In this document: positions 1 through 4,298 of the stretch, piece after piece | Position numbering within the stretch: the stretch's first letter is position 1 | Layout: each line of letters begins with the position of its first letter | DNA from: Nitrosospira multiformis ATCC 25196 | Lineage (GTDB): Bacteria > Pseudomonadota > Gammaproteobacteria > Burkholderiales > Nitrosomonadaceae | Direction: 5' to 3' | DNA: 32,000 bases | NCBI RefSeq assembly: GCF_000196355.1 | Contig: NC_007614.1 | Location: 2,340,001-2,372,000 of the forward strand | The notes under the pieces: model-generated | What the model saw: the letters and a program-made list of their open reading frames with translations, nothing else | What the model was told of the DNA's origin: nothing | The model's database searches: none | Translations under genes and position numbers: made by a program

Positions 1-429
1 CGGCCGGACCCAGACGTCGGTACCGACCGAAGCAGCGCCGCCGTTGTATAGTTGCACACAATACCGGGCTACGGACCAAGGGTCCTCCGACAACCAGACA
101 TAAAGGAACGCGGCCTCGCCGCACAGGCCATTGCCCCCCTGGTTGACGAGGTACGGGCTATCAAGCAGAAGCTCGAGGCGATCCGCCACGCTCGTGCGAT
201 CGAGGCCCGGCCACTTGCCCCGGCCCACCTGCCCCCGGAAACGATTGATCATCGTCTTGGCCTTGGCCACGGCTAAAGGCCGGTCGAGACGGGCGGGAGG
301 TGAGCTCCCTTTCGACGCAAGCCCATACACCAGCGAACCCACCGAGGCCGCCGCAGCCAGCGGCAGCAGATACTTGTCCGCGTAGATGGAGAGGGGATTC
401 TGAAAACCTGAGTAATTGGGATCGTTCAT
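1..429 (-). CDS. Partial ORF (N-terminal 143 codons, continues beyond the left edge); hypothetical protein with a papain-like Q-x5-C motif
   Basis: ATG at 429 (revcomp of cat 427-429), open in frame down to position 1. It is absent from the supplied ORF track, presumably because it has no in-window stop. My translation: MNDPNYSGFQNPLSIYADKYLLPLAAAASVGSLVYGLASKG...SPYLVNQGGNGLCGEAAFLYVWLSEDPW... Residues 20-38 are hydrophobic. Q97 and C103 have the same spacing as papain Q19/C25. It lies 52 nt downstream of the GH5-like gene on the same strand with the same GC-rich composition. Confidence 0.45.
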   Translation of the reverse strand, partial: MNDPNYSGFQNPLSIYADKYLLPLAAAASVGSLVYGLASKGSSPPARLDRPLAVAKAKTMINRFRGQVGRGKWPGLDRTSVADRLELLLDSPYLVNQGGNGLCGEAAFLYVWLSEDPWSVARYCVQLYNGGAASVGTDVWVRP

Positions 430-481
430 GAACAGATTACCCGTGCGGTGCGGCCGCGTCGTATATATGAAATCGGGCAAA

Positions 482-1470: not shown

Positions 1471-3996
1471 TCAGGGGAGCGGATAGGTGGGCAACAAATC
1501 CTGCCGGTTGCGCAGATACACGAGTTCGGTGGGCACCACGATCTCCCAGGGAGCCCCCACGAACACCGCACCCACGGCATGCTTCATATTGTTCCCGCTG
1601 GCATCGGGGTAGGGTTTGTCGATAATGATCGTCCAAGTCGAATTGTCTCCGACAGTGGTCTGCTCCACCTTGACGATCCGGTAGACCTTGAAGTTCACCA
1701 GAATCTCGCGGTCGACGTCATTGTCGAGCGTCAACGTCGCCGGTTGGTCATTGATGAGATCCCAATAGAAGTTGCTGTCCGTCAGCGTCAGGGTGTCGCT
1801 GCCCTGCACCGCCGCGATCAGCCCCGGCCGGTCGTTGTAGTCGCATTGATCGGCTTCTTTCAGCTCCTGGATCATGGCCACGTAGTCATCATCGCCTGGG
1901 GCCGGCGGCTCGCCGGTGGCGCCCCAGATCTGGCCGGTCTTCAGGAACCAGCTGAACACCGACTCGAGTCCGGGCCGCACTGGAACCTGCACGCGCGCGG
2001 CGCCGGACATCAGAAACTTGTCGAACAGGAGATCCCCGGAGTCCTCATCGATCAGGTCCGCCCATTTGCACTTGCGCGCCCACATACTGTGGTAGAAGAG
2101 ATAGGTCACATATTCCCACTCGAACACCTGTTCGAAGAACTGGATCACCGGAGTGTCCTTTTCGAGCTGCTCGAAGTTGATTTCCGGGTAGCCGCAGGGC
2201 GCTACGCGTTCCATCATGGAACCGACGCCATTGAAGTAGTTGCACATCAAAATGGCGATGATATTGCGCTTGAATTCGTTGCGTTCGATCTCGCGATTGA
2301 GGAAGGGATTCCTGCCCTTGATCTGGAACAGCTGGTCATCCTTGTTGATGGTGGCGTTGTAGGCATCGAGCTTGCGGTTGTAGTCGGTCATAATCAAGTT
2401 GTAGATCTGCGCCTGCCATTTCTCGAAGGCTTCGTCGGTGAGCGTGCAGGTGATGCTGATGGAGCCGCTCAAGGACAACGGCAGGCTCGAAAATCCCGCT
2501 AGCGCCACGGTGACCGCGCCCTCCTCGCCCTTCATGGGCATATTGCCGGTGCTGACCCAGTTCTTGTTCGACTGGCCGCCGCCCGAAGCGAACTCGTTGA
2601 GCTCGTCGAACATCAGGCAGATATTCCCCACGTTCACCGATATCGCGGCCTGGTCGTCCTGGGGGGTGCTTAACGGGTGCCCGATGGAGCAGCGGATGTC
2701 GTAGTCCATCGCGGTGGCCTTGTAACCCTTGGGGATGTCCGGCGATTTGAACTCGTTGGACGAGAACGCCACAGTCTTCTCGTTGTCCGGTTGTGGCACA
2801 TTCTGGCTGAAAGCGACCTGCACGCACACCGTCGGATCCGGCGGCTGGACCTCATCCGTCGTGGCGATGCCGTACTGGTTGAGCAGGGCGCCATAAGTAT
2901 TGCGCAGGATCGCCTGCGGCGTGGCCTCGGGTTTCGGCGGCGCCTTCGCATTCTTGTCGCTGGCGAGCTTGAGCTCGTAGAGCTTCTTGAAGATTGCGGC
3001 CGGCTCCGGCACGATGACGTCGAACATCATATGCTTGCCGTAGTTGTAGACCTGGGCGTGGCTCACCTTATTGACCCAGTAATAGATCCCGGCGCGGTGA
3101 TCGGCGCCCGCCTGGGTATTGTCGATGGAATGCTCGTTCTTCTCCTCGACTTCACTCAATACCTTGCTGATCTGCAGCTTGCGCACTTTCTCCTCAACCT
3201 TCGAAACCGAGCGATCGACGAGATCCTTGGAATAGGAACGTGCCGTGCTCTGCGACTCCGATTTGGCGAAGTTCGCCGTCACGTTGGCGTGCGGTGTGAT
3301 AGTCACCGCATCACCGTATTTGACCGTGGCGGTCACGCCCGCATCGATGCCCACTTTCTCGTCGACTGTGCTTTTGACCTCGGATTGCAGGCTGAACTTC
3401 TCGTTGACCTCGTGATCGCGCTCTTCCGATGTGGTGGTGTCGGTTTCGGATTCCGTGGTCGACTCCGAGCGGGTCAGCGTGCGATGCCGGCGCAGCTTCT
3501 TCTCACCTGCGAGAATATTCTCGATGTCGGCGATATCGCCGGCCTCGAAGCGCGCAAGCTCCTCCTTGATGAGGAACAGATCGCCGATGTAGGGCTTCAC
3601 GCATATGCAGAAGTTGCTAGGCTTCTGGCAAGACTCGTCGCAAGCACATTCACAGGGATTGCGGCTGGCGGCGACAGCATCGGGCTTGACCGTGGGCAGC
3701 TGCATCTTGTTCGGCGTCTTGCAATTCTCGCTGCAGCGTCCCCTCAGGAGCCGTGGCGGTAGTAGAATCGGCTGGGTCAGGATGGCATTAAGCCGCGCCG
3801 CCGTGACGTCGGCGGCGACTTGATACCCTTGATCGGTGGCTTTCAGGCACAGCCGAATGAGGTTTCCTATCCGAATAAGCAGCTGAAAGTCGACGCAGTA
3901 GTGCGTATGCAGGAATCCGCGCTCGATGGCGAGAATGAGGTTGTCCGCATAATGGCGCCACTCATCCTCCGGCTTTGGCAGATCGCTGGATTTCAA
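1471..3996 (-). CDS. Large hypothetical protein (841 aa), no family recognised; Cys-rich segment, acidic Ser/Thr/Glu tract, beta-rich core
   Basis: Uninterrupted 841-codon ORF with GC3-rich codon usage throughout. The start as tracked is TTG, overlapping the upstream stop (TTGA at 3993-3996), so the start is uncertain. There are 8 Cys in residues 88-132, a tract TRSESTTESETDTTTSEERDH, and blocks IADIENILAGEKKLRRHR, VIVPEPAAIF and FFEQVFEWEYVTYLFYHSMW. I see no TM helix, signal peptide or catalytic motif. Confidence 0.7.
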   Translation of the reverse strand: MKSSDLPKPEDEWRHYADNLILAIERGFLHTHYCVDFQLLIRIGNLIRLCLKATDQGYQVAADVTAARLNAILTQPILLPPRLLRGRCSENCKTPNKMQLPTVKPDAVAASRNPCECACDESCQKPSNFCICVKPYIGDLFLIKEELARFEAGDIADIENILAGEKKLRRHRTLTRSESTTESETDTTTSEERDHEVNEKFSLQSEVKSTVDEKVGIDAGVTATVKYGDAVTITPHANVTANFAKSESQSTARSYSKDLVDRSVSKVEEKVRKLQISKVLSEVEEKNEHSIDNTQAGADHRAGIYYWVNKVSHAQVYNYGKHMMFDVIVPEPAAIFKKLYELKLASDKNAKAPPKPEATPQAILRNTYGALLNQYGIATTDEVQPPDPTVCVQVAFSQNVPQPDNEKTVAFSSNEFKSPDIPKGYKATAMDYDIRCSIGHPLSTPQDDQAAISVNVGNICLMFDELNEFASGGGQSNKNWVSTGNMPMKGEEGAVTVALAGFSSLPLSLSGSISITCTLTDEAFEKWQAQIYNLIMTDYNRKLDAYNATINKDDQLFQIKGRNPFLNREIERNEFKRNIIAILMCNYFNGVGSMMERVAPCGYPEINFEQLEKDTPVIQFFEQVFEWEYVTYLFYHSMWARKCKWADLIDEDSGDLLFDKFLMSGAARVQVPVRPGLESVFSWFLKTGQIWGATGEPPAPGDDDYVAMIQELKEADQCDYNDRPGLIAAVQGSDTLTLTDSNFYWDLINDQPATLTLDNDVDREILVNFKVYRIVKVEQTTVGDNSTWTIIIDKPYPDASGNNMKHAVGAVFVGAPWEIVVPTELVYLRNRQDLLPTYPLP

Positions 3997-4298
3997 GTAG
4001 CGACGAAGTTCTTGAAGTCCTCCAGTTTAAGCGGTCGCGCCTTGAAATTCAGCCAATTGTAGAGGGCAAGCACGACGGGGTTGAGCGATTTCGAGTCGGT
4101 GATCTCGTTGGTCTTGTTCGCCTCCCGATAGCGGTTCAGGAGCGCCGTATAAGCGCTGTCGCTGTCCGCATCCTTGAGGCTGTTGGCTAGCTTCGACAAC
4201 GTGGCATCAGGGTACAGGGGTAATCCGATCTGCTGGGCTTCCTCCGCGGCGATGGTTTGCACCGGCCGCAATAGCTGAAAACGCGTAAGCTCTATCAT
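3993..4298 (-). CDS. Small hypothetical protein (101 aa), first gene of the GC-rich operon (or the detached N-terminus of the 841-aa gene)
   Basis: ATG at 4298, preceded by a G-rich element (cgggggttgcgacc-ATG) and a TATAAT hexamer. Its stop overlaps the TTG of the next ORF. Composition matches the operon. No family recognised. Confidence 0.5.
   Translation of the reverse strand: MIELTRFQLLRPVQTIAAEEAQQIGLPLYPDATLSKLANSLKDADSDSAYTALLNRYREANKTNEITDSKSLNPVVLALYNWLNFKARPLKLEDFKNFVAT

Follow-up and report, generated by a model that had tools for sequence, protein, structure and literature searches.

What could a large protein that resembles no described family be doing beside genes for enzymes that carry no export signal? 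The question is raised by one end of a 32,000-nucleotide (nt) stretch of Nitrosospira multiformis ATCC 25196 (contig NC_007614.1, positions 2,340,001 to 2,372,000; hereafter the window, numbered from its first base), where positions 1-4298 hold four closely packed open reading frames (ORFs) on the minus strand. A first interpretation made from the letters alone (the sequence-only reading) had taken them for a four-gene operon encoding a product of 101 amino acids (aa), an 841-aa protein that could not be placed, a hydrolase resembling glycoside hydrolase family 5 (GH5) and a papain-like Cys peptidase. In this study, we have compared the region with its relatives in genomes and metagenomes. The first two ORFs turn out to be the halves of a single 942-aa gene, whose close relatives are followed, in one locus after another, by mutually unrelated enzymes that begin with the same short leader. 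We propose, with a probability of roughly 0.45, that these genes make up a mobile effector cassette of the carrier-and-cargo type, from which exchangeable, leader-docked enzymes would be delivered outside the cytoplasm of the producer; for brevity, the large protein is called here the carrier and its neighbors the cargo. The sequences make the carrier/leader architecture as such quite likely, and the delivery step has somewhat less than an even chance.

A frameshifted gene at the head of the cassette

The ORFs lie where the sequence-only reading had placed them, and the junctions are those it described: a TTGA overlap (3993-3996), a TGA-5 nt-ATG junction (1463-1473) and a 52-nt gap (430-481). 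Their number, however, has to be revised (Table 1). Homologues of ~940 aa read across the junction between the first two ORFs, and one of them, P0001 (942 aa, 97% identity), continues through it as ...FKNFVAT-LKSSDLPKPE.... In the DNA alignment with two relatives, a single base is missing from the window, GCCACCTTGAAA being reduced to GCTA-CTTGAAA. Contig FNVK01000033.1 of NCBI assembly GCA_900108135.1 and the Logan assembly of SRR4235482 both match the window at 100% identity, and the identical frameshift stands in each. Since it is present in two assemblies, which may share a strain or a read set, the frameshift is probably genuine and not the error of one assembly. A programmed frameshift was ruled out and the change is read as a mutation, since a -1 shift would be required, no slippery heptamer is present and the relatives are in frame, among them over 170 unbroken close homologues of the carrier. 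As judged from these alignments, the cassette is made of three genes, the first one frameshifted, and the carrier of this strain is probably inactivated, or made as two pieces.

Table 1 Features of the window (nucleotide positions) and domains of the modeled carrier (residues)
Feature	Position	Strand	Basis or remark
Carrier, codons 1-101	3993..4298	-	Ends at a premature TGA caused by the frameshift; aligns to residues 1-101 of the intact 942-aa proteins P0001 and P0002
Carrier, codons 102-942 (the former 841-aa protein)	1471..3996	-	TTG start
Frameshift site	3994..3998	-	1-nt deletion relative to intact relatives; DNA alignment with L001 and L014
Cargo 1, GH5-like glycoside hydrolase, 327 aa	482..1465	-	Pfam PF00150 and PDB sequence matches
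Cargo 1 N-terminal leader, MAGGDDYSSLQQPSGGYAAAGDGMASYAGSQSPSSPYTAGG	1331..1465	-	BLAST; leader hidden Markov model, E=3e-10
Cargo 2 (gene 4), candidate papain-like Cys peptidase	1..429	-	Codons 1-143 of 327; truncated where the window stops
Cargo 2 leader, MNDPNYSGFQNPLSIY	382-429	-	Translation
Promoter-like CGGACA-16-TATAAT, directly upstream of the carrier ATG	4313..4340	-	Weak evidence
Fragmented IS3-family transposase ORFs, flanking the island and outside the cassette	6969..8268	-	ORF translations; Pfam rve_3 and rve_2 on the same DNA in L083
Carrier helical domain, its opening beta-strand with the family-wide FRFxxxRxP motif	residues 1-180		AlphaFold2 model
Carrier disordered Cys cluster	residues 190-235		AlphaFold2 model
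Carrier very long beta-hairpins	residues 237-276, 382-431		AlphaFold2 model
Carrier acidic, Thr-rich disordered loop	residues 273-301		AlphaFold2 model
Carrier low-confidence stretch between helices	residues 300-341		AlphaFold2 model
Carrier jelly-roll	residues 490-620		AlphaFold2 model
Carrier pair of long helices	residues 622-685		AlphaFold2 model
Carrier highly conserved alpha/beta core	residues 695-790		AlphaFold2 model
Carrier C-terminal beta-domain	residues 827-929		AlphaFold2 model

A leader shared by otherwise unrelated genes

The ~940-aa clade was inspected at ~57 loci, of which ~25, the window included, come from genomes and isolates and the others from metagenomes. Behind the carrier gene, at a distance of 4-142 nt, stand one to three further genes on the same strand (one or two in the genome and isolate loci). 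The enzymatic parts of their products are mutually unrelated and the first 20-50 residues are alike, with the pattern M-x(2-6)-[DN]Y-xx-[LQ]Q-x-P-x(3)-Y ... P-xx-Y, or roughly DYxxLQxPxGGY...PxxY. Examples are MAGGDDYSSLQQPSGGY...SQSPSSPY in the GH5 protein of the window, MAGASGYGALQQPGGGYGASQSPVPLY in a cargo of Sphingomonas alpina and MTDQDYRDLQSPQGGYGGIQQPGALY in one of Pseudarthrobacter. The leader, which stands at the extreme N-terminus and has its Tyr positions fixed, is composed of G (15%), S (13.5%), A (12.6%), P (11.5%), Y (9%) and Q (7%), these six residues together making up ~69% of it. BLAST similarity between cargo families is limited to these first 20-50 residues (residues 1-38/48 in the case of the window GH5 protein, which shows 53% identity to an HExxH protein over residues 1-38, with E=7e-7).

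A hidden Markov model (HMM) built from 26 leaders was run against 2,358 ORFs in 581 kb and matched none but those right after the carrier, the next-best match having E=0.96. The metagenome loci had been excluded from its training; 33 of them include the 3' end of the carrier gene, and of these 28 were positive, 27 directly downstream of the gene and one (L053) directly upstream; among the remaining five, four are leader-positive by eye, masked by mis-assigned upstream start codons, and one leaves no room downstream. These comparisons support the leader as a real and specific feature of the genes beside the carrier. A hydrophobic, signal-like run was found in none of 61 cargo N-termini, in agreement with the lack of Sec-type signals reported for the window.

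At L053 (4048-4935), a leader-bearing caspase-like cargo lies directly upstream of the carrier and a DUF5995 cargo downstream, so the position of the cargo is not strictly 3' of the carrier. No conserved small ORF of the 'immunity' type was found after the cargo genes; what comes next is either a second cargo gene or genes that are unrelated and not conserved.

Interchangeable cargo

Clustering divides the cargo into more than 20 unrelated families. The commonest, with 23 members of ~270 aa, has an invariant His...Gly and an invariant Cys, which lie on hydrophobic strands (NFFTHAN..G / VLYGC, or YxGHT / AGCA) and whose pattern is, by motif, caspase-like (clan CD); 13 of the 23 match DUF4347 weakly. 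GH5-like cargo comprises ten members plus those of Burkholderia stagnalis and Ralstonia pseudosolanacearum, the family of gene 4 has four members, always second, after GH5, and there are three HExxH and three to four DUF2515 proteins. Other cargo matched GH3 (E=2.5e-37), DUF5995 (E=3e-17), a polysaccharide deacetylase (Polysacc_deac_1, NodB-type; E=4e-16), Beta-lactamase2 (E=1e-8) and an OmpA-like domain (E=4e-8), and many are orphans. The co-occurrence of the large protein with such genes in unrelated genomes, on which the sequence-only reading had hinged its proposal, is strong. The pairing with a GH5 enzyme recurs, GH5 orthologues standing behind the carrier gene at 12 loci or more; the conserved unit, however, is not the proposed trio of large protein, GH5 enzyme and Cys peptidase, but the large protein with any of these interchangeable, leader-sharing enzymes.

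Cargo 1 of the window is, on the strength of its sequence matches, a GH5-family glycoside hydrolase, as its resemblance had suggested. It scores 38.9 bits against PF00150 over residues 96-292 (E=9e-10), above the curated gathering cutoff of 23.5, and matches the beta-mannanases 1bqc and 1wky of the PDB (E=5e-8 and 2e-7). Its translation contains both catalytic-type motifs, LMNEWGG and MLGEFGD, which by analogy with GH5 enzymes in general we take to be the catalytic acid/base Asn-Glu and the Glu nucleophile, respectively.

Gene 4 is a candidate papain-like Cys peptidase by its motifs. Four homologues, the most distant at 49% identity, all keep Q97, C103, H268 and D285, which with only four sequences is weak evidence; the spacings are Q-6-C and H-17-D, and the order Gln...Cys...His...Asn/Asp is that of clan CA. 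Neither Pfam (at E<=0.05) nor the PDB sequences gave a match, and the papain-like call of the sequence-only reading thus has to be lowered to one by motif. The Nitrosospira-type protein has a hydrophobic insert, YLLPLAAAASVGSLVYGLA, right behind the leader (window 316-372, residues ~20-38), which is missing in the ~50%-identity homologues L044 and L048 and might anchor this particular variant in a membrane.

Two leader-bearing caspase-like cargo genes, in a member of the Chloroflexia (L022 10860-11662) and one of the Acidimicrobiales (L025 10858-11677), are split over two overlapping frames, and are further frameshifted cassette genes. The Beta-lactamase2 domain is found both in a leader-tagged cargo (L057 3664-4923) and in a divergently oriented neighbor of the Ralstonia cassette (L037 5363-6703).

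The carrier family and its predicted structure

The large protein proved as hard to place as had been claimed. Pfam, NCBIfam and PHROGs, searched with the four ORFs and an intact homologue, gave no match to the carrier, the only match of all being the Pfam GH5 domain of cargo 1. Forty diverse members of the carrier family gave noise only in Pfam (E>0.006), and searches of PDB sequences with the single carrier sequence and with a 67-sequence profile returned nothing below E=0.36. Counted as representatives of clusters at 50% identity, the family has 3,425 members at E<=1e-3 and still 1,798 when the cutoff is set to E<=1e-30; a second, profile-based homologue search mostly recovered the same close relatives. 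Pfam, NCBIfam, PHROGs and PADLOC, in versions dated 2023-2026, contain no entry for this family of ~3,400 sequence clusters. Its ~940-aa clade is 58-67% identical over Alpha-, Beta- and Gammaproteobacteria, Actinobacteria, Bacteroidota, Chloroflexi and Acidobacteria. No relative of the carrier was found among 50,697 sequenced phage genomes. A phage structural gene was ruled out, these genomes and PHROGs being empty save for a 70-aa tail-fiber-like module in one distant member, where a tail-fiber N-terminus of PHROGs (E=1e-7) matches at the region of the C-terminal beta-domain of the carrier.

An AlphaFold2 model of the carrier, made from 67 sequences (predicted local distance difference test, pLDDT, 81; predicted template-modeling score, pTM, 0.69), is elongated and multidomain, with disordered linkers. 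Segment 1471-3996 of the window encodes the Cys cluster, the long beta-hairpins, an amphipathic stretch, the jelly-roll, the alpha/beta core and the C-terminal beta-barrel. The amphipathic stretch, residues 300-341, is the longest conserved beta-amphipathic one in a scan across the alignment, and no segment resembling a transmembrane helix was found anywhere in that alignment. When the full model was compared with the PDB and BFVD by Foldseek, the jelly-roll alone (~160 residues) found matches (E=1e-6 to 1e-3; template-modeling (TM) score ~0.1 of the query), namely capsids of single-stranded DNA viruses, lambda gpJ, BcsB and C1q/TNF-like domains. The C-terminal third, modeled separately (pLDDT 86), gave nothing below E=1e-2; its last ~100 residues weakly resemble the small beta-barrels of phage T5 Dit and endosialidase, in agreement with the tail-fiber match of PHROGs to the same region of the distant member. 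The profile and structure searches thus led to local jelly-roll and beta-barrel matches, and to no confident match with a characterized family. A pore-like or scaffold role, put forward in the sequence-only reading, may be considered for a protein of this kind.

Distant clades of the family, of 790-1,220 aa, align with the carrier from about residue 210-238 onward. They were found in Streptomyces, Cohnella, a Bacillus thuringiensis plasmid, Sinorhizobium megaplasmids, Tsukamurella and the haloarchaeon Natronorubrum. The leader was not found in these clades, which retain the layout of a large protein plus a partner. The partner is a patatin phospholipase in Terrimonas, Natronorubrum and flavobacterial-type contigs, and two others give matches below the Pfam cutoff, a 619-aa Cohnella protein with a weak one to PT-TG and a 744-aa protein of L033 with one to Tox-MPTase4 (E=5e-4, 20 bits). 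Four partners have no detectable domain: those of Bacillus thuringiensis and L029 (383 and 387 aa; L034 9845-10996 and L029 10664-11827) are 54% identical, and those of Streptomyces and Tsukamurella (342 and 361 aa; L027 13182-14210 and L040 7789-8874) share an MKQ.VLVAG N-terminus.

On a Natronorubrum bangense plasmid (L039 7689-7904), the annotated 71-aa ORF after the large gene corresponds to the conserved C-terminus of the family, GEPWEVTVPTNLVAL, and is itself followed by a patatin gene; since this C-terminus lies in another frame, the archaeal copy of the carrier is also frameshifted or mis-annotated. The IMG/VR contigs L029-L033 hold family members of 1,140-1,219 aa just beyond prophage holin/endolysin and tail-fiber genes. 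Because the 50,697 phage genomes hold no relative, these members look like prophage-edge morons or the product of mis-drawn prophage boundaries.

A mobile setting

The composition of the region sets it apart, as the sequence-only reading had noticed. Its GC content (1-4298) is 0.597, against a mean of 0.538 in the other 4298-nt windows (standard deviation 0.013, maximum 0.571), and GC at third codon positions (GC3) reaches 0.75-0.81 in the cassette genes, compared with 0.57-0.68 in rpoD, dnaG, rpsA, aroA and other housekeeping genes. In the spacer at 4299-4520, the GC content is 0.41. A scan for promoters and terminators gave no more sites than chance (two promoter-like sites versus 2.1 expected).

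Remnants of an IS3-family insertion sequence (IS) stand between the island and a housekeeping block (rpoD, dnaG, tsaD). They consist of an orfA-like ORF (7945-8268) and a broken orfB (7415-7963, 7120-7392 and 6969-7604), and contig FNVK01000033.1 ends inside them. A 109-aa ORF (6605-6934, minus strand) with a clear N-terminal signal-like segment, MKRNMLAAAAIPIVIFFAKSAFA, is located between an EamA transporter gene and these remnants.

In the other direction, the same contig extends the sequence leftwards, as the sequence-only reading had asked for in order to recover the rest of gene 4 and any further members. Gene 4 is completed at 327 aa (L083 6906-7889, identical DNA), and the extension contains no further genes of the operon and only small ORFs, a RES-domain gene, DUF932 and DUF4113. 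At L083 8400-12200, left of the window, the RES-domain gene (207 aa) is preceded by an unannotated 208-aa ORF, with which it possibly forms a toxin-antitoxin pair, and DUF932 and DUF4113 are present as well. Because RES-domain, DUF932 and DUF4113 genes are typical of integrative/conjugative elements, the cassette is part of a larger mobile island. Its nearest relative in a named genome is that of a Nitrosospira metagenome-assembled genome, at 94%. With its GC and GC3 values, the IS3 remnants, neighbors of the mobile-element type such as the RES-domain and DUF932 genes, and relatives of 58-67% identity in several phyla, the cassette looks horizontally acquired, in line with what had been proposed from its composition.

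Discussion

The carrier-and-cargo reading can be put as a sequence of steps. The carrier, a 942-aa protein without signal peptide or transmembrane helix, would be made in the cytoplasm, and each enzyme would dock onto it by its disordered leader of 20-50 residues. The likeliest receptor for the leader would be the N-terminal domain peculiar to this clade of carriers (residues 1 to ~200), which is a candidate because the leader and this type of N-domain are confined to the same clade. The jelly-roll and the tail-fiber-like beta-barrel could serve binding, and the conserved amphipathic beta-stretch at 300-341, with helices on both sides, could insert into a membrane. The carrier would in this way take the enzymes to a target beyond the cytoplasm of the producer, either after cell lysis or by self-export.

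We favor the carrier-and-cargo reading because the leader is portable, because the carrier is strongly conserved and the cargo hypervariable, as in the logic of polymorphic or binary toxins, and because the types of cargo usually act on envelope or extracellular polymers and yet have no signal peptides. In this regard, the binding-type beta-modules and the conserved amphipathic stretch of the carrier, as well as the location of the genes on islands, plasmids and prophage edges, also speak for it. In a wider sense, which leaves the purpose among delivery, export and defense, there is about an even chance that the ~940-aa protein and its relatives represent an undescribed, self-contained protein-handling system of bacteria and at least one archaeon, with a ~105-kDa carrier that would recognize the leader on more than 20 enzyme families and thereby give signal-less hydrolases a common route to their target. 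As the sequence-only reading had held, no described system of this composition was found among the PADLOC models or in the full-text literature, access to which was partial.

Several points weigh against this proposal. What is observed is a fused and frameshifted gene, a large family, a constant adjacency, a leader in common and cargo of many kinds; docking, delivery and target are inferred from these, and any toxicity is hypothetical. No link in fold or sequence was found from the carrier to any translocator, and its amphipathic stretch is modeled at low confidence (pLDDT ~52-64). Immunity genes were not found, which is unusual for anti-bacterial toxins; a DUF4347 protein, PA0256, has been proposed to be a toxin of type VI secretion (by the T6SS) that is bound to Hcp and has no immunity gene (PMC8262886). 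The family occurs in diderms, monoderms and one archaeon, for which a single delivery route is hard to picture, and a conserved Cys cluster (CxCxC...C...CxC), together with many other conserved cysteines, would fit a cytoplasmic metal-binding protein. The neighborhoods that resemble defense islands suit a defense function equally well. Finally, the copy in the window is frameshifted, so nothing can be inferred from it about carrier activity here.

The main alternative, which we hold to be unlikely but deserving of attention, is anti-phage abortive infection. The large protein would then be a cytoplasmic sensor that keeps the leader-tagged effectors (caspase-like, HExxH or papain-like proteases, patatin, glycosidases) inactive and frees or activates them upon infection, leading to cell death or lysis. 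Genes of the defense type (TIR, STAND ATPase, SLFN/AlbA_2, caspase C14, STING-TIR, toxin-antitoxin pairs) are neighbors in four of the ~12 loci inspected, the distant members beside prophage lysis and tail-fiber genes occupy a position typical of morons or defense genes, and horizontal spread that includes archaea fits defense systems. Patatin and caspase-like proteases are common defense effectors, and the patatin partner matches generic phospholipase effector models of PADLOC at 1e-6; the other nine of ten partners, however, match none of its 5,027 models (PADLOC-DB v2), and the sole match of the carrier is PtuB, at E=0.0017 and 16 bits. The joint absence of signal peptides and immunity genes would fit a system acting inside the cell, but it is not obvious what GH5, GH3, NodB deacetylase, OmpA-like or beta-lactamase-like cargo would act on in the cytoplasm. 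Pfam detected no NTPase, nuclease or nucleic-acid-binding domain in the carrier family, and we know of no defense system in which sensor and effector are coupled through an exchangeable disordered leader of 40 aa.

It is improbable, in our view, that the large protein self-assembles into the shell of a nanocompartment or storage particle into which the leader packages the adjacent enzymes, as in encapsulins. The order of the genes, with a shell gene followed by cargo bearing a short terminal targeting peptide, is that of encapsulin operons, and the identity of 58-67% kept over ~940 residues across phyla might reflect many constrained interfaces; the model, however, has the elongated, multidomain shape with disordered linkers described above. 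The best matches of the jelly-roll include single-jelly-roll virus capsid proteins (E=3e-4 to 1e-3), but they are short, covering the same ~160 residues with a TM score of ~0.1 of the query, and those to TNF/C1q-like and tail-fiber domains are equally good. Neither an HK97 fold nor a Pfam match to encapsulins was found. Typical encapsulin cargo consists of metabolic or oxidative-stress enzymes, unlike the degradative hydrolases found here.

That there is no functional system at all, but chance neighbors in a decaying island with a leader of unremarkable low complexity, is very improbable, for although the carrier is frameshifted in the window and the leader is compositionally simple, the comparative data contradict such a reading: adjacency, strand and spacing are kept in the ~57 loci, from at least five phyla, among wholly different flanking genes, the leader has its Tyr positions fixed at the extreme N-terminus and occurs on no other ORF in 581 kb, and the carrier has over 170 close homologues that are conserved and unbroken.

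The genetic signature of the system, a conserved partner and a portable leader on interchangeable enzymes, is clear and testable. Should the leader be a docking or export tag, it would provide a new route to their targets for signal-less hydrolases, proteases and phospholipases of monoderm and diderm bacteria, and account for the many GH5, GH3, deacetylase and protease genes that stand as 'cytoplasmic' orphans in the genomes of soil bacteria and of plant pathogens such as Burkholderia and Ralstonia; so short a tag could also be useful for loading heterologous cargo. If it is instead a defense system, it would bring a new sensor family and an unusual exchange of effectors.

Comparison with known systems

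Among the single enzymes, cargo 1 resembles GH5 beta-mannanases such as that of Thermobifida fusca (1BQC), having a PF00150 match above the gathering score and both Glu motifs, and differs from them in that the leader takes the place of a signal peptide or carbohydrate-binding module.

Contractile injection systems also mark unrelated effectors for loading by short N-terminal motifs or disordered leaders (MIX/FIX effectors of the T6SS; cargo of Photorhabdus virulence cassettes (PVC) and extracellular contractile injection systems (eCIS)), and the commonest cargo family here weakly matches DUF4347, the domain of PA0256. Unlike in those systems, no sheath, tube, baseplate, VgrG or Hcp genes were found within 7-10 kb in 12 loci (called genes, Pfam), and the carrier family extends to groups that have no T6SS, namely Actinobacteria, Firmicutes and an archaeon. 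Encapsulins share with the cassette a structural gene followed by diverse cargo genes with a short terminal peptide; the carrier is three to four times larger and has no HK97 fold, the cargo is made of hydrolases or toxin-like proteins, and self-assembly is here only hypothetical.

Polymorphic toxins (Zhang, Aravind et al. 2012, PMC3482391) likewise place a constant N-terminal module on variable enzymatic or toxin domains and exchange cassettes by horizontal transfer, and the two weak matches of distant-clade partners, to PT-TG and Tox-MPTase4, point the same way. Here, in contrast, the constant part is a disordered leader of only 20-50 aa and the conserved component is a separate, unrelated protein of 105 kDa; the cognate immunity gene that characterizes those toxins is missing downstream of the cargo, and no domain linked to type V, VI or VII secretion (T5SS, T6SS, T7SS) or to Sec was found in carrier or cargo. 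Binary toxins of the anthrax type, in which protective antigen (PA) serves lethal factor (LF) and edema factor (EF), also combine one conserved component with several enzymes that have a common, presumed binding N-terminal region, and the conserved amphipathic beta-stretch of the carrier, in a poorly ordered region, is loosely reminiscent of a pore-forming loop. The carrier nevertheless has no similarity of the PA type (Pfam, PDB sequence, fold), signal peptides are missing, the leader is short and disordered and not a folded PA-binding domain, and the family extends to archaea. All together, the proposed logic would resemble, by analogy, that of a binary or polymorphic toxin; the components of the system appear to be new, and its overall logic is a familiar one.

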